A stretch of 32,000 bases of DNA, taken from contig JBHLPG010000016.1 in the NCBI GenBank assembly GCA_048939725.1, positions 299 to 32,298 of the forward strand, read 5' to 3'. Below the pieces are notes generated by a model. It searched no databases. It saw nothing but the letters and a program-made list of their open reading frames with translations, and was not told the origin of the DNA. How positions within the stretch are numbered: position 1 is the first letter of the stretch; each line of letters opens with the position of its first letter. The stretch is from Promethearchaeota archaeon. GTDB taxonomy: Archaea > Asgardarchaeota > Heimdallarchaeia > Hodarchaeales > Hodarchaeaceae. The position numbers and the translations under genes are program-made. Positions 1,096-28,796 of this stretch are shown here, in pieces.

Positions 1096-1830
1096 TTGTT
1101 CGCACCGAAGGGTTTAGGTTATGATAGAGGGAGTACTATTTTTAGTCCTGATGGGAGATTATTTCAAGTGGAATACGCCATCGAAGCTGTTAAACGCGGA
1201 ACAACAGCCATTGGGATTAAAACTGATGAGGGGTGTTGTTTAGCAGTTCAAAAACGGTTACACACCTCTCTTGTCGAGAAAGAGCTGGTAAAGAAGATTT
1301 TTGCAATTGATGACCACATTGCTGCAGCTATTGCGGGATTAACAGCCGATGCACATGTGCTTGTGAATCAAGCACGTATTCAAGCGCAGATTCATCGGAT
1401 TACCTATAGTGAAGCAATAACTGTAGAGGCACTTACTCGACGACTAGCGAATCTAAAGCAGATGTACACTCAACACGCGGGAGTACGGCCTTTCGGGGTT
1501 TCATTGCTCATTGCAGGCTGTGATGAAATGTTAGGCCCTCAATTATATATGACTGAACCTAGCGGAAGTTATTGGGGGTATCGTGCTACTGCAATAGGTT
1601 CAAGTGCTCCTGCAATCATAGAATATCTTGAGGGTGAATACAAAGAAATCGCTCAAACCCTGGAGGAGGGGAGTTTAATTGCTTTAAAAGCACTAAAACA
1701 CGTGTCTGACGAGGTCGGTATTGACCCACAGATGATTGAAATTGTGGTAATATCCAAAAAAACTCAAGTAATTGAATATTTAAGCAAACAAGACATAAAT
1801 TTACTTATTAAACGTTTGCAGGAGAGTTAG
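1096..1830 (+). CDS. psmA: Proteasome subunit alpha
   Basis: YDRGSTIFSPDGRLFQVEYA is the hallmark N-terminus of 20S alpha subunits. 244 aa, TTG start at 1096. It heads the exosome/proteasome superoperon. Confidence 0.93.
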   Translation: MFAPKGLGYDRGSTIFSPDGRLFQVEYAIEAVKRGTTAIGIKTDEGCCLAVQKRLHTSLVEKELVKKIFAIDDHIAAAIAGLTADAHVLVNQARIQAQIHRITYSEAITVEALTRRLANLKQMYTQHAGVRPFGVSLLIAGCDEMLGPQLYMTEPSGSYWGYRATAIGSSAPAIIEYLEGEYKEIAQTLEEGSLIALKALKHVSDEVGIDPQMIEIVVISKKTQVIEYLSKQDINLLIKRLQES

Positions 1831-1833
1831 GAA

Positions 1834-2568
1834 ATGTTACGAGATGCACGTAGGTTTGATTTAACAGGTAAATCAATTGTTCGTGCAAAATTTGAAGGGA
1901 ATAGATTTGAAATTATAGTTAATCCAGAATTGGCTCTTAAATATAAAATGGGTTTACTTGATGATACAACTAGTATTTCTGACATTCTCGAAATGGATGA
2001 AATTTTTCATAATGCAAGCAAGGGGGAAAAGGTTCCCGAAGAGATTCTCTTGCATTGTTTTGAGACAACTGACCTTATTAAAATTGCAGAAAAACTACTG
2101 ATTAAAGGAGAATTGAATTTAACAGCAGAACAACGCCAGGAATTTTTCGAGAAAAAGCGTCGACAAATCGTAACTATTCTATCTAAGACATGCATAAATC
2201 CGAAGACACGAACTCCCCATCCCCCTTTACGAATTGAGAACGCAATGAAAGAAGCTAAGGTTATGATTGATCCATCAATCCCTGCAGAAAGTCAGCTAAA
2301 GGATATAATCAAGCAGCTTCGTAGTGTTATGCCCATTAGTATGGAAACCGTCAAACTTGCTGTGAGAATTCCTCCAGAGTTTACAGGGAAGGCTTATGGA
2401 GAAATAAAACGTGATGCACAAATTGAAAAAGATGAATGGCAGAATGATGGTCATTGGATTGCAGTAGTAACAGTGGCAGCTGGAATACAGGGAGAGTTTA
2501 TGGAACGGGTTCAAAGTATGACAAAGGGCCGTGCAGAGATCAAGATTATGGAAAGAATTCGGTTATAA
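1834..2568 (+). CDS. sdo1: SBDS/Sdo1-family ribosome maturation protein
   Basis: 244 aa. It has an FYSH-like N-terminus (FEIIVNPELALKY). Its position directly after psmA and before rrp4 matches the conserved archaeal superoperon. Confidence 0.85.
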   Translation: MLRDARRFDLTGKSIVRAKFEGNRFEIIVNPELALKYKMGLLDDTTSISDILEMDEIFHNASKGEKVPEEILLHCFETTDLIKIAEKLLIKGELNLTAEQRQEFFEKKRRQIVTILSKTCINPKTRTPHPPLRIENAMKEAKVMIDPSIPAESQLKDIIKQLRSVMPISMETVKLAVRIPPEFTGKAYGEIKRDAQIEKDEWQNDGHWIAVVTVAAGIQGEFMERVQSMTKGRAEIKIMERIRL

Positions 2569-2597
2569 CCTTTTATGATAACTTTATTATTTGAGAA

Positions 2598-3338
2598 GTG
2601 AATGAAATGACGATTTTAGTGACCAGAAATCAACTTGTTATTCCGGGTGAAATTTTAGCTCGTGGATCTGGATTTAAAGTTGGTGGTGGAGTATATCGTA
2701 GAACTGTCAATAATGAGATTGAGATTTACGCGTCTATGATAGGTTTGGCACAGATTAGAAAGAATAGAGTAGGTGTTGTCCCATTAGAAGGTTGCTATAT
2801 TCCATTAGAAGGAGATATTGTTATTGGAAAGATAACCAAGGTAGGTATCACTTCTTGGAACGTAGATATACGTGGGCCTTATATCGGAACACTTAGAGTT
2901 AGTAATGTTATTGATAGAGACTTTGATGCTCTTAGGGAGAGTTTGGATCGCATTTTGGAGACTGGAGACATTATCAAAGCGCAAATCACATTCTTTGATA
3001 GAATGCGAGATCCTGTTCTCACATTACAAGGACGGGGCCTTAGAAAAATAAACAATGGCCATTTAATCGAGGTAGATCCAGTCAAGATTCCCAGGATCAT
3101 TGGTAAAAAGGGCAGTATGATTCAATTATTAAAAAATATGACTAATGCTCAAATTATTGTTGGACAAAATGGCCGGATAGTCATTATTGCATCTAATCTG
3201 GAAACTGAAAATTTGGTCGAGCGTGCGATCCAAAAAATCGAAGCAGAGGCCCATACAAGCGGATTAACTGACAGAATTCGCGAATATTTAGAAAATGAAA
3301 AGATGAAATTATCTCAAAGAAGTGAAGAAGATGAATGA
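2598..3338 (+). CDS. rrp4: Exosome complex RNA-binding subunit Rrp4 (S1 + KH)
   Basis: S1-like GDIVIGKITKVGITSWNVDI and KH-like IPRIIGKKGSMIQLL are present. GTG start, with ATG alternatives 6-9 nt downstream. The 3' end overlaps the rrp41 start. Confidence 0.9.
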   Translation: MNEMTILVTRNQLVIPGEILARGSGFKVGGGVYRRTVNNEIEIYASMIGLAQIRKNRVGVVPLEGCYIPLEGDIVIGKITKVGITSWNVDIRGPYIGTLRVSNVIDRDFDALRESLDRILETGDIIKAQITFFDRMRDPVLTLQGRGLRKINNGHLIEVDPVKIPRIIGKKGSMIQLLKNMTNAQIIVGQNGRIVIIASNLETENLVERAIQKIEAEAHTSGLTDRIREYLENEKMKLSQRSEEDE

Positions 3339-4086
3339 AGAAAAAACTCCTCTTATGCTTGAGGATGGTCGACGTTTAGATGGTCGTGGGCTTCACGACC
3401 TTAGGCCGATTGAAATGAGCACAGGAGTCCTTAACCGAGCTGATGGAAGTTGTTATCTTAAGTGGGGAAATAATAAAATATTATGTGCGGTCTATGGGCC
3501 ACGAGAACTACATCCAAAACATCTTGCTCAACCAGATAAAGCAATAGTTCGCGTTGAATATAGACTTGCAACGTTTTCTGTTGGAGAACGAAAAAGTCCA
3601 GCTCCCCGTCGTCGAGAGTATGAACTTAGTAAGATATTATCCGAATCAATTAATTCAGCCTTATTTTTAGAAAAATTTCCTACTGGAACAATAGATGTTT
3701 TCGTCACTGTTTTAGATGCAGATGGTGGTACTCGTTGTGCAGCACTAACTGCTGCTTCATTAGGACTAGCTGATGCAGGCATCCCGATGAGAGGGATTAT
3801 TACTGGTTGTGCAGTCGGGAAAGTTGATGGGAAAGTTGTGGTTGATCTTTCCGATGTTGAAGATAAAGAAGGAGAAGGAGATATGCCTGTTGCGATGATT
3901 CACAGCACAGGAGAGTTAACCTTACTTCAGTGTGACGGTAAATTCACACCAGAAGAGATTGAAGAAGGGCTTAAACTTTCAAGAACAGCCATTGGCCAGG
4001 TATATCAAATGCAGCGAAACGCTTTATTAAATAAATATTCCCAACTCGAAGAACCTCATGATAAACTTGACGATGAAGAAGAATAG
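3322..4086 (+). CDS. rrp41: Exosome complex exonuclease Rrp41 (RNase PH domain)
   Basis: RLDGRGLHDLRPIEMSTGVLNRADGSCYLKWGNNKILCAVYGPRE is the RNase PH family signature. The start is GTG 3322 or in-frame ATG 3331. Confidence 0.92.
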   Translation: MKKMNEEKTPLMLEDGRRLDGRGLHDLRPIEMSTGVLNRADGSCYLKWGNNKILCAVYGPRELHPKHLAQPDKAIVRVEYRLATFSVGERKSPAPRRREYELSKILSESINSALFLEKFPTGTIDVFVTVLDADGGTRCAALTAASLGLADAGIPMRGIITGCAVGKVDGKVVVDLSDVEDKEGEGDMPVAMIHSTGELTLLQCDGKFTPEEIEEGLKLSRTAIGQVYQMQRNALLNKYSQLEEPHDKLDDEEE

Positions 4087-4096
4087 GTGAAAAAAA

Positions 4097-4951
4097 ATGC
4101 GTTCAGAAGATATAATCGCAAGCTTAGAAAAAAGATATCTAACTGATTTACTTGCGAAGGAGCAACGGATGGATAATCGAAGTTTTTGGGAGGGGCGCCC
4201 AATTCAAATTATACCTAATGTCATTAAAAAGGCTGAAGGTTCAGCAATGGTAAAATGGGGTGACACTGTTGTGTTGGCTGGTGTAAAAGCACAAATAGGT
4301 TCTCCATTTCCAGATACTCCAAATGATGGTGTAATCACAGTGAACCTTGAATTATCTCCCATATCATCACCATCGTTTGAAAGTGGTCCACCGGGGCCTT
4401 TAGCTATCGAAATGGCTAGGGTTGTGGATCGAGGAATTCGCGAAAGCAAAGTAATTCCAATGAATGATCCAAAATTATGTGTTATTCCTGGAAAATCTGT
4501 GTGGATTCTGTTTATTGATGTTTATATACTTGATGATGGAGGAAATTTAATAGATGCTTCAGCGCTTGCAGCTATGGCAGCCCTTGCAAATACACGATTA
4601 AATAAGGTTTTAATTGATGAAGAAACAGAAGAAGTCACATTATTGGAAGAAACGGAACCCTTACCGAGAGCAGGGTGCGCAGTAAGTCTGACATATGTAA
4701 AAATTGATGATATAATTATGTATGATCCCAATCTGATTGAAGATCGGGGGAAAACTGCTCGATTTTCTTTAGCAATCACAGATGAAGGTATGATATGTTC
4801 GATGCAGAAAGGAGAATCAGGTGTTTTTCTAGAGAGTGAAATTTTAACTATATTAGAAAAAGCATCAAGTCGAGGGAAGGAATTAATTGAAATCATTGAA
4901 CAAAATTCAGAGGTTACAGAGCTTCAGGAGATGTTCCAATTCGAATTTTGA
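4097..4951 (+). CDS. rrp42: Exosome complex subunit Rrp42 (inactive RNase PH-like)
   Basis: An RNase PH-like fold is indicated by AEGSAMVKWGDTVVLAGVKAQ. It is the third gene of the rrp4-rrp41-rrp42 trio. Confidence 0.9.
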   Translation: MRSEDIIASLEKRYLTDLLAKEQRMDNRSFWEGRPIQIIPNVIKKAEGSAMVKWGDTVVLAGVKAQIGSPFPDTPNDGVITVNLELSPISSPSFESGPPGPLAIEMARVVDRGIRESKVIPMNDPKLCVIPGKSVWILFIDVYILDDGGNLIDASALAAMAALANTRLNKVLIDEETEEVTLLEETEPLPRAGCAVSLTYVKIDDIIMYDPNLIEDRGKTARFSLAITDEGMICSMQKGESGVFLESEILTILEKASSRGKELIEIIEQNSEVTELQEMFQFEF

Positions 4952-5114
4952 CCAATGATTTTCTACTAGAAATGATGACGATATCAATAAATATGAACCA
5001 TAAGGAGCTCTCTTATAGGGTATTACTGAATCCTGAAACTGGAAAGCCCCCCTACATTACATAGGGAAGATATCTATTAGTAAGTAAAGCAATAAATGGA
5101 GTAATACAATAAAA

Positions 5115-5390
5115 ATGGGACGAACTAAAAAGGTAGGATCCACAGGACGCTTCGGTACCAGATATGGTGCTACAATTAGGAAAAGAATCAAGAAGATTGA
5201 AGGTGTTATGAAAATCAAACACCGGTGTCCTTCCTGTAATTTAAATAAGGTAAAGCGAGACTCAATAGGCATTTGGGAATGCCAATTCTGTGGTTTTCGA
5301 TTTACTGGCGGATCGTGGGCTCCAGAAACACCAGGGGGAAAGATTGCTCTTCGAACGGCCAAACGATTAGCTAGTGAACCCGAAACTTAG
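5115..5390 (+). CDS. rpl37ae: Ribosomal protein L37Ae (eL43)
   Basis: MGRTKKVGSTGRFGTRYGATIRKRIKKIE plus a CPSC...CQFC zinc ribbon is diagnostic of eL43. Confidence 0.93.
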   Translation: MGRTKKVGSTGRFGTRYGATIRKRIKKIEGVMKIKHRCPSCNLNKVKRDSIGIWECQFCGFRFTGGSWAPETPGGKIALRTAKRLASEPET

Positions 5391-26050: not shown

Positions 26051-26571
26051 TTTATGTTTTGAGTCAGAAAAAATCGTCTAGCAGCATTGCTATCGAAAGA
26101 ATTTCAGCTAACTTTTGTGCCTCCCATGTTATAGTTACTGAACAATATGAAGAGGGTCTTCACGGACATAATTATCTTGTTGAAATTGAGATTGAGGGAA
26201 ATGTGGATACGGATGATTTACTTATTGACTTCATTTTTCTAGAAAAGCTCCTTTCCCAAGCCATTTCAAATTGGGATCATTACATATTATTGCCATCAAA
26301 GAATAGCAAGATGATAATTAGTGAAAACGAAGATAACATCGAAATCAAATATGGAAACCGATTTTATTCCCTTCCCAAGAATGAGATAAAATTTTTGAGT
26401 TGTAGAAATGTAACCACCGAAGTCTTAGCCCGATTACTGGGCGAAAAATTAAGAGCTCTCTTATATCAAGAAGAATTTTGGAAAAGGATACAAACCATTA
26501 AGATCACGATATGGGAAACTTCAGTTTATCGCGCTAGTTATACTATTCGATCCAATCTCTTAGGAAAGTAG
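26047..26571 (+). CDS. 6-pyruvoyl-tetrahydropterin synthase / QueD-family protein
   Basis: FCASHVIV...EGLHGHNYLVEIEIEG...LIDF is the PTPS/QueD catalytic pattern. The start is uncertain. The ORF track gives TTG 26020. TTG 26047 forms a TTGA overlap with the trxB stop. TTG 26059 is also in frame. Confidence 0.8.
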   Translation: MIYVLSQKKSSSSIAIERISANFCASHVIVTEQYEEGLHGHNYLVEIEIEGNVDTDDLLIDFIFLEKLLSQAISNWDHYILLPSKNSKMIISENEDNIEIKYGNRFYSLPKNEIKFLSCRNVTTEVLARLLGEKLRALLYQEEFWKRIQTIKITIWETSVYRASYTIRSNLLGK

Positions 26572-27358
26572 TAATATCAACTCTTGGGAATCCAGGGATT
26601 TGCTGTCCTTTGTTAGTAAGATTGTATCGAAGTCCATTATGTTGAGAATGAAATTCTGTGAGTAAATCAAGAGCAACCTCAAATTTCTCTAACTTCTTCT
26701 CCTTTTTCTTGTTTAACAGGGAATTAAGTGTGCTATATTCTCCAATTTGGGTTCCAAAATCAAAACCAATGAGCCCAACAAGAGGAGATTGGAAATGAAA
26801 AGTTAAAAAGATAGCTCGATCGCCATCAGTAAAGCCTCCGAAATTAAAAAGGAATTCTCCTGGCTCACACTGAGCTGTTCCCCAGACATCATTTTCATAG
26901 ATGATATTCCGATATTTTTGGAAGAATAGAGAAAGCTGTTGTTGGTTATCTCCATGAGCATGAATCAATGCTAAAGCGCCATTCTTAATCGCCCAGCTAA
27001 TCGAAACTAAATCACCATCGAGATCGGTGACAACTATTGATGGAATGATTTTTTCTTGTTTGAATAACGTTGTTGCACCATCAACTGAAATTATCTGAAA
27101 GTTAAATAAAATTTTACTAGAATATGAGGCCTTGAAAAGTGTTGAAAAATCTTTTTTCAAAGAAGGGCCTGCTCCAGCAATTATTACAGGTTTATTCTGT
27201 ATTATTTTCAGTTTCAGAAGGATTTCATTTTTCTTATTAGGTGAAAATTTGGCTAAATGCGTTTCCAATAATCGCACTGCCCTCCTATCCGCCTCCGTAT
27301 CAAAATCTAACTTATCCATAATTTGGAGATAGCTTTTTTTCCACTCTGGCCAAATCAT
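26543..27358 (-). CDS. mptE: MptE-like 6-hydroxymethylpterin diphosphokinase (DUF115 family)
   Basis: IIAGAGPSLKKD, ISVDGAT, VVTDLDGDL and IHAHGDN follow the pattern I recall for DUF115/MptE. It is convergent with the PTPS-like gene and overlaps it by 29 nt. Confidence 0.7.
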   Translation of the reverse strand: MIWPEWKKSYLQIMDKLDFDTEADRRAVRLLETHLAKFSPNKKNEILLKLKIIQNKPVIIAGAGPSLKKDFSTLFKASYSSKILFNFQIISVDGATTLFKQEKIIPSIVVTDLDGDLVSISWAIKNGALALIHAHGDNQQQLSLFFQKYRNIIYENDVWGTAQCEPGEFLFNFGGFTDGDRAIFLTFHFQSPLVGLIGFDFGTQIGEYSTLNSLLNKKKEKKLEKFEVALDLLTEFHSQHNGLRYNLTNKGQQIPGFPRVDITTFLRDWIE

Positions 27359-27488
27359 CCTCGTTATCTCTGTTTAATTATAACCAAATTAGTCTTGAAG
27401 TAAGATCCAATGACCACAAATAAAATATTTAAGGACTCTTGAAAGTGCTCCTTTTGGTTTGTTTTACAAACAAGGCGCTTATAACTGC

Positions 27489-27633
27489 GAGGCTCTGCCG
27501 GAAGTTAAGTTAGGTTCCGTTTCGGTCTGTACTGTTGTGCGCGAGCCAACGGGAACATCGAGAAGCTGAGTATTGCTCGGCCAAAGGGCCTGGGTTACAC
27601 CCGGTCTCATTCCGAACCCGGAAACAGAGTCTC
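27489..27633 (+). other. Leader/trailer processing helix with bulge-helix-bulge geometry enclosing the permuted 5S
   Basis: GAGGCTCTG 27489-27497 pairs with CAGAGTCTC 27625-27633 (9 bp, one G-U). CCGG 27498-27501 pairs with CCGG 27618-27621 (4 bp). The 3-nt bulges AAG 27502-27504 and AAA 27622-27624 each lie 3' of the 4-bp helix on their own strand. Confidence 0.7.
27504..27623 (+). rRNA. rrn5: 5S rRNA, circularly permuted gene order (3' half, 5-nt loop, 5' half); 120 nt between the predicted BHB cut sites
   Basis: ACACCCGGTCTCATTCCGAACCCGGAA (27597-27623) and GTTAAGT (27504-27510) are the two halves of the conserved archaeal 5S helix III/loop C motif, in swapped order. The loop E/helix IV-V arm lies at 27522-27561 (GTACTG...GGGAAC, GNRA-capped stem). 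The helix I strands GCTGAG/CTCGGC are joined by the loop TATTG. Confidence 0.85.
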
Positions 27634-27884
27634 CTTCTTCTTACGCCTAAGTTTCAACTCTTTTCTATTTTGATTTCAATGATTAATTGGTTTAAGCATT
27701 GTTTCTCATATATTTTCCTTGATTTGGGAATGTGAGGTAAATAATATATTGGTAGTTAGATTGAAGTTTAATAGACCTTTATTATGATGAAGGTCAAAAT
27801 AGTAGGTTACAAGACTATTGATATAACTGCTATCAATCTCTTATTAAATATTGAAGTTTAATCTTAATTCGACGGAGACGTTAA

Positions 27885-28796
27885 ATGGTATTCTCTCCAA
27901 TAGCTCAAAGTTATTTTGACGAATTCCCATTTCATCGAAGTTCTCCACGAAAACCATCGTCAGGTTTTTTTTTCTTATCTCACGCACATTCTGACCATAC
28001 ATCTGGTCTCCGATCAAGTCTCTCTGATCCTGATGTCACTATTGTATGTTCTAAAGAAACTGCAGCTGTTGTCGGGGTTCTCTATGGAATTCCCCAAGAA
28101 AAATGTCTAGAAGTAAGATCAAATCAATCCCTAGACTTTGATAATTTCACTGTTCATGCAATAGACGCTAATCATTGCGTTGGTAGTTTATCATATATAA
28201 TAGAATCAAAAGATGGATTAAAAGAAGTGTATACAGGTGATTTTAGGCTAGGAACTCCGATTTTGGACGAACTCAGCTTACTTGAAGGAGCTAGCCATCT
28301 CTGGGTAGACTATACTTACGGGAAAGATCCCATATTTAGATTTCCTTCAAGAGAGAAAATGATTTCAGAAATTATTACTTTAATACTTACAGAAGGAAAC
28401 TATCCAGCAAGAGATGTCTGGATATCATCCTATCAAATAGGGAAAGAAAAGCTCCTTAAAACAATCAGTGACGCATTGAAGGTGAAAATATGGGCACCAG
28501 ATCTTAAAGTGAAAACCTACAAAGAAATTGGAGGAGAATGGGATATTTTTACCACTGATAGAGATTCAGGGGTATTTGTTGGGAGTCGTCGAATGGTTGA
28601 AAGATTGCATGGAATAGATAAAGAATATCATGATAAGATGTCTGAAGCTCTAAGAATCTCTCCAACGGGGTGGGCCTCACGGTTATACCAAAAGCATTTA
28701 GATGTGAATTTCTTTCCTTATTCTGATCACTGTTCATATTCTGAGGTTCATAAATTCATTGAGCTAGTTAACGCAGGAAGAATCGTAAAAATCTAA
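27885..28796 (+). CDS. SNM1/Pso2/Artemis-like metallo-beta-lactamase / beta-CASP DNA repair nuclease
   Basis: The HxHxDH motif is LSHAHSDHTSGL. A series of blocks follows that I recognise from eukaryotic SNM1/DCLRE1: IDANHCVGS (DANHCPG), YTGDFR (TGDFR), WVDYTY (LDTTY), YQIGKEKLL (IGKEK), ISPTGW (RPTGW), PYSDHCSYSEVHKFI (PYSEHSS..E...F). Confidence 0.8.
   Translation: MVFSPIAQSYFDEFPFHRSSPRKPSSGFFFLSHAHSDHTSGLRSSLSDPDVTIVCSKETAAVVGVLYGIPQEKCLEVRSNQSLDFDNFTVHAIDANHCVGSLSYIIESKDGLKEVYTGDFRLGTPILDELSLLEGASHLWVDYTYGKDPIFRFPSREKMISEIITLILTEGNYPARDVWISSYQIGKEKLLKTISDALKVKIWAPDLKVKTYKEIGGEWDIFTTDRDSGVFVGSRRMVERLHGIDKEYHDKMSEALRISPTGWASRLYQKHLDVNFFPYSDHCSYSEVHKFIELVNAGRIVKI

Follow-up and report, generated by a model that had tools for sequence, protein, structure and literature searches.

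A circularly permuted 5S rRNA gene with a flanking splicing-type motif in an Asgard archaeon and related loci

5S rRNA is universal, and its gene has been described as easy to identify in archaeal genomes (PMC4267664), yet authors of closed Asgard genomes report that 5S genes could not be predicted (PMC8813620), although some Asgard MAG papers report 'a 5S rRNA gene' without details (PMC9723677). Could such genes be present in an order that standard models do not recognize? Here, we describe a 120-nt locus in a 32,000-nt stretch of DNA from an Asgard archaeon (hereafter the window; GCA_048939725.1, contig JBHLPG010000016.1, positions 299 to 32,298 of the forward strand), in which a 5S rRNA is encoded as 3' half, short hairpin cap and 5' half, and ask whether it is a genuine 5S gene and how its halves might be re-joined.

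A complete 5S rRNA in permuted order

The original prediction, that this is a genomically permuted 5S rRNA gene whose halves would be re-joined at a flanking bulge-helix-bulge (BHB) motif, is confirmed base for base in its coordinates and is supported in its central reading by everything testable by sequence, with cleavage, ligation and circularity being inferred. Its weak inner helix was already noted there. One detail requires correction: TTATAA at 27479-27484, proposed as a possible promoter with a transcription start near 27505-27510 that would give a linear permuted RNA, is not conserved in relatives, and this alternative is not supported by conservation. The conserved promoter-like block instead lies at 27425-27451. 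The features of the locus, all on the + strand, are as follows.

27425-27451 (+), conserved promoter-like block ATATTTAAGGACTCTTGAAAGTGCTCC, with the TATA-like box ATATTTAA at 27425-27432 and an inferred transcription start near 27455-27457; the block aligns among 13 Hod/Heimdall-type loci at about the same distance upstream of the gene, and its promoter function is inferred
27457-27471 (+), leader hairpin (GUUUG / CAAAC, loop UUUUA); relatives have a hairpin of different sequence at the same place
27473-27477 (+), 5' strand (AGGCG) of a distal leader/trailer helix, pairing with 27644-27648; judged by eye only
27489-27497 (+), 5' strand of the 9-bp leader/trailer (outer) helix, GAGGCUCUG (DNA GAGGCTCTG), with one G-U pair
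27498-27501 (+), 5' strand (CCGG) of the 4-bp central helix of the BHB-like motif
27502-27504 (+), 5' bulge AAG, with a predicted cut between 27503 and 27504 that makes G27504 the 5' end of the excised RNA
27504-27570 (+), 5S rRNA 3' half: helix II 3' strand, helix V, loop E, helix IV with GCGA loop, and helix I 3' strand (GCTGAG, 27565-27570) (Rfam model about 52-115); the continuation GTTAAG starts at 27504
27571-27575 (+), 5-nt loop UAUUG (DNA TATTG) that covalently closes helix I, where an ordinary 5S has its two ends
27576-27623 (+), 5S rRNA 5' half: helix I 5' strand (CTCGGC, 27576-27581), loop A, helix II 5' strand, and helix III / loop C (27599-27623) (Rfam model 6-51)
27618-27621 (+), 3' strand (CCGG) of the central helix; the same bases are the 3' strand of helix III in the mature fold, so that the two pairings are mutually exclusive
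27622-27624 (+), 3' bulge AAA, with a predicted cut between 27623 and 27624 that makes A27623 the 3' end of the excised RNA
27625-27633 (+), 3' strand of the 9-bp leader/trailer helix, CAGAGUCUC (DNA CAGAGTCTC)
27644-27648 (+), 3' strand (CGCCU) of the distal leader/trailer helix, by eye
27661-27671 (+), two T4 runs (27661-27664 and 27668-27671), a likely archaeal oligo-T terminator, function inferred

The Rfam 5S_rRNA model (RF00001) yields no hit at its gathering score (38 bits) anywhere in the window, as expected for a permuted gene, and only sub-threshold pieces of 20.8 and 14.9 bits are seen; model positions 27-51 align to 27599-27623 (20.8 bits) and model positions 52-113 to 27504-27563. 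The isolated 5' half matches model 6-51 as a 3'-truncated 5S_rRNA at 28.1 bits (E 9e-5), while the isolated 3' half (27504-27570) gives no Rfam hit at E <= 1 and is seen only inside a forced global alignment and with our own model, below. Joining 27623 to 27504 therefore joins model position 51 to 52 with no indel. In place of a direct Rfam score for the rotated sequence, a reciprocal test was made with a covariance model (R2) built only from 24 in-silico re-joined Asgard sequences. R2 hits three Rfam-verified bacterial 5S genes (97.5 bits in Rfam) end to end at the same coordinates, covering model positions 1-114 at 64 bits (E about 5e-16), with no other match below E 0.1 outside the Asgard loci in 134 kb, whereas on native Asgard loci it gives only two half-hits (here 43.8 bits for the 3' half and 33.6 bits for the 5' half). 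A search with a model built here found no second 5S-like copy in the window.

Conservation across Asgard lineages

The arrangement recurs in about 55 independent loci, with 49 hits in GTDB genomes and 8 in metagenomes, on sequences carrying names from Hod-, Heimdall-, Hermod-, Thor-, Jord-/Frey-, Njord- and Promethearchaeota (Loki-type). Every GTDB hit is on an Asgard-type locus and none on the chance bacterial pattern matches, although one carrying contig is binned as Nanopelagicaceae. A locus labelled Thermoproteota does not extend the feature beyond Asgard, as its TrpRS is 99% identical to a Freyarchaeota protein. The layout is found in three chromosome-level assemblies and many independent MAGs, with syntenic conservation in chromosome-level Heimdall-type assemblies, and is thus not a misassembly. 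Rfam misses all 18 related Asgard loci tested. Among Hod-type loci, GC-rich complementary blocks occur in leader and trailer of most (e.g., GCGCC/GGCGC, ACGCC/GGCGU, GCGCU/AGCGC), and T-runs lie about 20-45 nt after the trailer helix in nearly all.

Alignment with MAFFT followed by RNAalifold on all 39 flanked sequences recovered only the leader/trailer helix, helix IV and helix III, because the sequence alignment misplaces helices I, II and V between clades. Model-based realignment of 46 distinct sequences resolved this, with 95.6% of structure cells paired and 38 of 45 pairs compensatory, against 30-44% paired when the partners are slid; as this alignment was fitted to the model, the pairing percentages are somewhat inflated. 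All 5S helices are 93-100% paired, helix I is 100% paired with 5 of 6 pairs covarying, and all 9 pairs of the leader/trailer helix show changes on both sides (94.8% paired). Within the Hod clade alone, 96.8% of cells are paired with 10 compensatory pairs. The motifs ACCCGGUCUCAUUCCGAACCCGGAA, GUACUG and GGGAAC are conserved. Outer-helix base pairs 1-3, next to the 3' bulge, are paired in 39/39 distinct loci with up to six pair types, and own leader/trailer pairs give a mean of 6.5 contiguous bp, against 2.2 when swapped between loci and below 0.7 when slid.

These data bear on whether the locus could be a decaying relic of a tandem 5S duplication, or an assembly artefact, with a conventional gene elsewhere supplying the ribosome. 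The leader CCGGAA (27498-27503) does repeat CCGGAA (27618-27623), as a tandem-duplication origin would leave, and one relative carries an extra truncated copy (locus L078, 3201-3280). However, the same complete gene is kept across Asgard lineages carrying at least seven different taxon labels, with compensatory changes in every helix and its own conserved promoter-like block and likely T-run terminator. No contiguous, conventional-order Hod-type junction was found in 241 million metagenome records (0 hits), while 8 of 8 control hits are permuted, a result informative for DNA that says nothing about RNA. We consider this explanation very remote, although the remainder of this genome could not be searched for a conventional 5S.

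A predicted splicing-type motif and the fate of the RNA

The bases retained after the predicted cuts are conserved, while the discarded ones vary. In the 5' bulge, position 2 varies (A, G, U, C) and the retained position 3 is G in 36 of 39 loci; in the 3' bulge, the retained first two bases are AA in 36 of 39 loci and the discarded third base varies in those 36 (A 23, U 11, G 2). The remaining three, Jord/Frey-type, loci have A and GA, respectively, and replace CCGG/CCGG by CGUG/CACG in a register shifted by one, which gives the same ligation product. Across relatives, central base pairs 1-3 are kept in about 93-98% of sequences, but base pair 4 is G-C in 29, A.C in 7 and G.A in 3 of 39 distinct loci, and is unpaired in 16 of 44 in the model-fitted alignment. 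The inner helix is at best 2-3 bp (G27504-C27617, U27505-A27616 and U27506-A27615, which would shrink the 5' bulge to 2 nt) or is replaced by a multi-helix junction, with the native G27504-C27598 and U27505-A27597 pairs also possible; both strands are constrained by 5S function, so covariation cannot decide. The motif is best described as a relaxed (hBH / BHL-like) rather than a strict hBHBh' BHB. Asgard EndA is reported to be the (alpha-beta)2 type with the L1 loop, which confers broad specificity for relaxed BHB motifs (PMC5829648). Unconstrained RNAfold of the precursor predicts the 9-bp outer helix (z = -3.0) but neither the central helix, which competes with helix III, nor the native 5S fold; constrained folds give -55.3 kcal/mol for the BHB conformer against -50.9 for the helix III conformer, such that the BHB conformer is energetically accessible.

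We consider it likely that 27504-27623 is the organism's functional 5S rRNA gene. In this explanation, an independent transcription unit from the TATA box near 27425-27432 to the T-runs near 27661-27671 is inferred to yield a precursor in which leader and trailer pair through a distal helix and then the 9-bp helix, and the leader's CCGG pairs with the CCGG that later forms the 3' strand of helix III. The tRNA-splicing endonuclease (EndA) would cut between the second and third base of each bulge, after 27503 and after 27623, releasing a 120-nt RNA with 5'-OH and 2',3'-cyclic phosphate ends. RtcB would then ligate A27623 to G27504, joining ...CCGAACCCGGAA to GUUAAG... and restoring the universal ...CCCGGAA-GUUAAG... 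connection, after which helix III forms. As helix I is closed by a stable small loop, UAUUG here and UUCG-type tetraloops in other clades, the mature 5S is most probably a covalently closed circle that is not reopened, although these RNA-level steps and incorporation into ribosomes are inferred.

A less likely possibility is that the mature RNA is linear and permuted, cut out at the two bulges or trimmed by other nucleases guided by the leader/trailer stem and never ligated, leaving a 5S with a nick between helix III and helix II and a capped helix I. All DNA-level evidence fits this equally well; the retained bases would also be conserved if the RNA stayed nicked, so the conservation pattern does not prove ligation; brown-algal mitochondria use a permuted, unligated 5S (PMC4267664), and the weak inner helix and imperfect fourth base pair show that the motif is not an ideal EndA substrate. 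However, described EndA products in archaea (tRNA exons, circular introns, circular pre-16S/23S and the circular SRP RNA) are ligated by RtcB (PMC4731332), the two ends are held side by side by helices II and III in an ideal ligation geometry, and the exact 3 + 4 + 3 geometry is kept even where the sequence changes in the Jord/Frey register shift, which is what a splicing-type motif needs and more than a simple processing stem would need. Even more doubtful is a circular intermediate that is reopened in the helix I cap to give a conventional linear 5S, as permuted tRNA genes are finished by RNase P and tRNase Z. This is the pathway in Cyanidioschyzon (cited in PMC4267664), and circular pre-16S/23S are generally thought to be reopened (PMC12918454), but the cap is only 3-5 nt, with no conserved extra sequence between the helix I strands, and in distant clades is a UUCG-type tetraloop on a G-C closing pair (e.g., GCUUCGGC in Loki-type and Njord-type loci), a hallmark of a permanent structural cap rather than a spacer with processing signals.

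This arrangement explains why 5S genes could not be predicted in Asgard genomes, and the covariance models built here, or a permuted Rfam family, would fix annotation and MAG 'high-quality' scoring. It predicts that ribosomes of the closest archaeal relatives of eukaryotes contain a circular, or at least nicked and capped, 5S rRNA, and would make 5S maturation depend on EndA and RtcB, a new essential substrate for that machinery. More tentatively, if the 5S inside Asgard ribosomes is a covalently closed circle made by the tRNA-splicing machinery, it is a rare, essentially irreversible genomic character, and eukaryotes, which have ordinary linear 5S genes, must either have branched off before it arose or have re-derived a colinear gene, for example by retro-insertion of a 5S RNA. 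Mapping permuted against conventional 5S genes over the contested Asgard/eukaryote phylogeny would then give an independent marker for where eukaryotes attach, and 'missing 5S' in Asgard genome quality statistics would be an annotation artefact.

Comparison with known permuted and circular RNAs

To our knowledge, and in the literature searched, a gene-level circular permutation of a ribosomal RNA gene that must be repaired by the tRNA-splicing machinery has not been described for any archaeon. Circular forms of ordinary 5S rRNA exist in Sulfolobus, Pyrococcus and Halobacterium (PMC12558985; bioRxiv 10.64898/2026.03.23.713588), but come from conventional genes, lack a BHB, have heterogeneous junctions, are low in abundance and are interpreted as degradation or side products. 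The permuted mitochondrial 5S rRNA of brown algae and other stramenopiles (Valach et al. 2014, PMC4267664; model mtPerm-5S) likewise has a rearranged helix I region and displaced termini, but there helix I is replaced by a terminal hairpin, the ends sit at the three-way junction, no BHB or ligation is involved, and the product stays permuted. Here, helix I keeps both native strands and is merely capped, the break lies between helix III and helix II (model 51/52) with a splicing-type motif, and no Rfam family other than RF00001 gave a relevant match, none reaching its threshold in the window.

BHB-dependent circular pre-16S/pre-23S rRNA, circular 23S in ribosomes, and the permuted 23S of Pyrococcus/Thermococcus (PMC12918454, PMC7758197, bioRxiv 10.64898/2026.03.23.713588) also involve a leader/trailer processing stem with a BHB and circularization by EndA and RtcB (only inferred here), and in some lineages a circular or RNA-level permuted rRNA ends up in the ribosome. 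Those genes are colinear in the DNA and any permutation arises only at the RNA level, whereas here the gene itself is permuted, so ligation is needed to restore the sequence; of these papers, one lists 5S as not circularized and another notes that any 5S circles would form without a BHB. Circularly permuted tRNA genes (Cyanidioschyzon merolae; Thermofilum pendens) similarly encode the 3' half upstream of the 5' half, join the native ends by a short linker, form a BHB at the new termini and mature through a circular RNA (only inferred here), but tRNA circles are reopened at the native ends by RNase P and tRNase Z, while here the native ends are sealed by a tetraloop-like cap with no sign of reopening. 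The closest precedent is the permuted SRP RNA gene of Thermoproteus tenax / T. uzoniensis (Plagens et al. 2015, PMC4731332), in which a universal, structured non-coding RNA gene that seemed 'missing' is circularly permuted in the genome, has its own TATA box, and has a leader and trailer that fold into a BHB at the new termini, where the splicing endonuclease cuts and the ends are ligated to give a circular, functional RNA. Cleavage and circularity are proven for the SRP RNA and only inferred here. The present RNA is 5S rRNA rather than SRP RNA, its central helix borrows a mature helix strand (helix III), and the arrangement spans many Asgard lineages rather than a few species of one crenarchaeal genus.

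Sequence organization and identity of the 5S rRNA

Direct reading of 27300-27800 and extraction of the strings by script confirm every element listed in the original prediction, which had proposed a circularly permuted 5S rRNA gene with a flanking BHB motif that would rejoin its halves. The elements enclosing the gene are as follows.

27489-27497, leader GAGGCTCTG, complementary to the trailer (9 bp with one G-U)
27498-27501, CCGG, facing CCGG at 27618-27621
27502-27504, bulge AAG
27504-27623, enclosed piece of exactly 120 nt
27618-27621, CCGG, facing CCGG at 27498-27501
27622-27624, bulge AAA
27625-27633, trailer CAGAGTCTC

Within the enclosed piece the order is helix II 3' strand; helix V, loop E and helix IV, capped by GCGA; helix I 3' strand GCUGAG (27565-27570); a 5-nt loop UAUUG; helix I 5' strand CUCGGC (27576-27581); loop A; helix II 5' strand; and helix III / loop C. 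No tRNA and no Rfam family at its curated threshold were found in the window. A 66-codon TTG-start ORF (27535-27735, +) overlaps the RNA gene and its trailer and is very likely spurious, but gene callers may annotate it as a hypothetical protein in place of the RNA gene.

With relaxed thresholds, the Rfam 5S_rRNA model gave two pieces in swapped order, with model 27-51 aligned to 27599-27623 (20.8 bits) and model 52-113 aligned to 27504-27563, inside a 14.9-bit forced global alignment. The 5' half alone scored 28.1 bits (E 9e-5) as a 3'-truncated match to model 6-51, while the 3' half alone fell below the filters. Position 27623 is model position 51 and 27504 is model position 52, so joining them restores the family consensus without any insertion or deletion. 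Identity was then tested in reverse: 24 distinct Asgard sequences were re-joined in silico (cut in the helix I cap, joined at the predicted junction), a covariance model (R2) was built from them with the standard 5S structure, and 134 kb were searched that included three bacterial rRNA operons whose 5S genes are verified by Rfam at 97.5 bits. R2 hit exactly those three genes end to end (model 1-114) at 64 bits (E about 5e-16), and outside the Asgard loci nothing else scored below E 0.1. On the native Asgard loci R2 produced only two adjacent half-hits, of 43.8 and 33.6 bits in the window. The re-joined sequence is therefore a genuine 5S rRNA, and the genomic order really is permuted.

Conservation and covariation across Asgard loci

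The flanking genes are archaeal and include proteasome alpha, SBDS, exosome Rrp4/41/42 and Cdc48; the row proteasome-alpha, SBDS, Rrp4, Rrp41, Rrp42 (1096-4951), identified by eye from the translations, is the usual archaeal exosome superoperon. The downstream MBL/DRMBL-fold protein is 100% identical to a 'Promethearchaeota archaeon' protein and 65-92% identical to proteins that, where a source names them, are Heimdall-/Hodarchaeales proteins; its best non-archaeal matches are eukaryotic Apollo/SNM1 exonucleases. The loci of two homologues from chromosome-level assemblies, CP070695.1 (4.94 Mb) and CP070760.1 (3.16 Mb), show the same gene neighbourhood (MptE-like gene, intergenic region, MBL gene), with the same permuted 5S in that intergenic region. 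In Hod/Heimdall-type genomes the 5S gene lies between an MptE-like gene and an SNM1/Apollo-like MBL/DRMBL-fold gene (window 26543-28796; loci L001 2632-4912 and L003 2644-4912), and the distant GC-rich locus L012 (1186-2136 and 4629-4749) also has that MBL gene about 2.5 kb from its 5S.

A pattern that can only match the permuted order (GTACTG..GGGAA..45-70 nt..CCGAAYNCGGAA) was scanned over one genome per GTDB species and returned 99 stretches. A model of the whole precursor (R1, built from 14 Hod-type sequences and a hand-drawn structure) separated these cleanly, giving 49 hits, every one on an Asgard-type sequence and none on the chance bacterial pattern matches. By record title, the hits come from Hodarchaeota, Heimdallarchaeota, Hermodarchaeota, Thorarchaeota, Jordarchaeia, Freyarchaeota, Njordarchaeota, Promethearchaeota/-archaeia (Loki-type) and unclassified archaea. 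One Loki-type gene (locus L055, DATKTW010000142.1, 679-842) sits on a contig binned as a Candidatus Nanopelagicaceae bacterium, an actinobacterial MAG, and this contig is almost certainly misbinned. The one record labelled Thermoproteota (locus L091, JAPDJY010000015.1, Thermoproteota archaeon S9B3_HD70, 3909-4074) is an Asgard genome by its TrpRS (ORF 4173-5261), which is 99% identical to a Candidatus Freyarchaeota protein, so the permuted 5S is not shown outside Asgard. In one MAG (Hodarchaeota YT1_021) two contigs end and begin inside the 5S gene with overlapping, identical sequence (L033:1-146 and L096:3030-3174), and the assembly graph apparently breaks at this locus. This many independent assemblies, three of them chromosome-level, excludes a chimeric junction.

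Within the Hod clade alone, 96.8% of structure cells pair and 10 pairs show changes on both sides, compared to 28-51% pairing in slid controls. In the alignment of all 49 hits (46 distinct), 95.6% of cells pair and 38 of 45 pairs are compensatory, with a covariation score of 0.586 against 0.19 for shuffles (0 of 500 reach it) and 30-44% pairing in slid controls. This alignment was fitted to the model, which favours pairing, a bias not shared by the anchored, alignment-free analysis of the junctions described below. Every helix takes part: helix I, which is closed by a loop instead of having free ends, is 100% paired with 5 of 6 pairs covarying, and the leader/trailer helix is 94.8% paired with 9 of 9 pairs covarying. 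A relic or pseudogene reading is contradicted by this Asgard-wide conservation and covariation.

Although the rest of this genome could not be searched for a conventional copy, indirect evidence is available. The contiguous junction of this 5S type (CCGAACCCGGAAGTTAAGYYAGGYTCCGTT) occurs 0 times in 241 million metagenome records, while a control pattern for the same 3' half occurs in 8 contigs, all of them permuted with leader and trailer (177-193 bits with R1 for the 7 complete copies, the eighth being cut by its contig end). Rfam at its threshold finds no 5S in 118 kb around 18 of these genes. Against this, some MAG descriptions list 'a 5S rRNA gene' for Borr- and Jordarchaeum without details (PMC9723677), which may be either partial hits on a permuted gene or conventional genes.

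Splicing-type motif and inferred transcription unit

Each of 39 distinct loci was anchored on the two predicted junctions, with no alignment needed. The three outer-helix pairs abutting the 3' bulge are paired in 39/39 loci; pair 2 is U-A, C-G or G-C, and pair 3 takes all six standard types. Each locus's own leader and trailer give a mean of 6.5 contiguous pairs, against 2.2 when trailers are swapped between loci and below 0.7 when the register is slid. Clade-specific sequences illustrate this point (table).

Table. Leader and trailer sequences by locus type.
Locus type; leader; trailer
Hod; GAGACUCUG; CAGAGUCUC
L012; GGGUG; CACCC
L026; CCAGCACUCUGG; CCUGGAGUGCUGG
Jord; GGCGUCGUUG; CAGCGACGCC
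Loki-type (bipartite stem); AACCACAU...ACG; CGU...AUGUGGUU

In the Loki-type clade (e.g. L006:6741-6898, L040, L067) the stem is bipartite, with 3-6 bp next to the bulge and then AACCACAU/AUGUGGUU further out, and in one subgroup (e.g. L006, L040, L067) the leader also carries a small internal hairpin (UAGC...GCUA) between the two parts.

In the central helix, bp 1 is C-G in all loci; bp 2 is C-G in 34, G-C in 3 and U-G in 2; bp 3 is G-C in 36 and U-A in 3; and bp 4 is G-C in 29, A.C in 7 (many Hodarchaeota read CCGA) and G.A in 3. In the Jord/Frey-type loci the helix is CGUG/CACG in a register shifted by one base, with bulges AAA and GAA, which gives the same ligation product and is a true compensatory replacement. 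The count on the fitted alignment agrees, with 92% paired overall and bp 4 unpaired in 16 of 44. In the 36 loci of the standard register, the discarded second base of the 5' bulge varies (A, G, U, C) while the retained third base is G, and the retained first two bases of the 3' bulge are AA while the discarded third base varies (A 23, U 11, G 2). The three Jord/Frey-type loci, one base over, yield the same junction sequence. This is the pattern expected if the RNA is cut between bulge bases 2 and 3 on both sides. Constrained folding shows that the precursor conformer with the central helix (-55.3 kcal/mol) is at least as stable as the one with helix III (-50.9). The motif does not appear to be strict; the inner helix is at best G-C, U-A, U-A, which would shorten the 5' bulge, or is otherwise replaced by the 5S junction itself. 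We therefore classify the motif as relaxed (hBH / BHL-like). Asgard archaea are reported by Kaneta et al. to have the (alpha-beta)2 EndA with the L1 loop, the type that cleaves relaxed motifs (PMC5829648).

The following elements of a transcription unit were assigned by inference from conservation.

27425-27451, block conserved upstream of the Hod-type genes, ATATTTAAAG.CTCTTGAA.GCGCTCC (ATATTTAAGGACTCTTGAAAGTGCTCC)
27457-27471, leader hairpin
27473-27477 with 27644-27648, distal GC-rich leader/trailer helix (AGGCG/CGCCU)
27661-27671, T-runs following the trailer

The precursor thus resembles a miniature 16S/23S-type processing stem. Other clades also show TATA-like boxes upstream, and most show T-runs downstream. 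The original prediction had considered a TTATAA at 27479-27484 as a possible promoter element, but this lies between the two leader/trailer helices and is not conserved, and we therefore do not support a start near 27505 giving a primary linear permuted RNA.

Proposed maturation and comparison with known systems

In the best-supported pathway, a precursor of roughly 200 nt is transcribed, leader and trailer pair, the leader CCGG captures the helix III 3' strand, EndA cuts after 27503 and after 27623, RtcB joins A27623 to G27504, and helix III forms. We think that the circle is not reopened and that the mature 5S is circular. The main rival is the same gene yielding a nicked, unligated RNA; no sequence evidence distinguishes the two, but we rate the rival lower because described EndA products are ligated and the ends are held together. 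The original interpretation is supported at the DNA and comparative level, where a functional permuted 5S gene is all but certain; maturation at the bulges by EndA is likely, and a ligated, circular mature RNA is, with somewhat less confidence, probable. On origin, as an inference only, the leader CCGGAA repeats the 3' terminal CCGGAA, as a tandem duplication followed by loss of the outer halves would leave, and because CCGG is its own complement, the 4-bp helix would have come for free. A second, truncated copy about 270 nt upstream of the intact gene (L078:3548-3713) in locus L078 (contig CAZALJ010000016.1, 3201-3280) might bear on how the permutation arose. It is made of the leader, the CUGG/AAG motif and the 5S 3' half only (up to loop E, with GTATTG and GGGAGC variants), is followed by unrelated AT-rich sequence, and looks like a decaying partial duplication.

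What appears to be new is a permuted rRNA gene in the DNA across Asgard lineages, which resolves the 'missing 5S' problem, predicts a circular rRNA in these ribosomes, and offers a rare genomic character for the eukaryote-origin debate. Full-text literature searches, which also recovered a 2026 Asgard review and a 2021 survey of 5S variation, found no description of a permuted archaeal 5S, although most subscription journals were not covered and prior description elsewhere cannot be excluded. Permuted non-coding RNA genes restored by BHB cleavage and ligation are already known for tRNA genes and for the SRP RNA of Thermoproteus, the latter being the direct precedent for a circular mature product (PMC4731332). 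Archaeal 16S and 23S are circularised at BHBs, and 23S can be circular or RNA-level permuted in ribosomes, but the papers examined treat 5S as outside this pathway, with one listing 5S as not circularised and another noting that any 5S circles would have to form without a BHB. Circular forms of ordinary 5S are regarded as degradation products. The permuted mitochondrial 5S of brown algae is architecturally different and is not re-joined.
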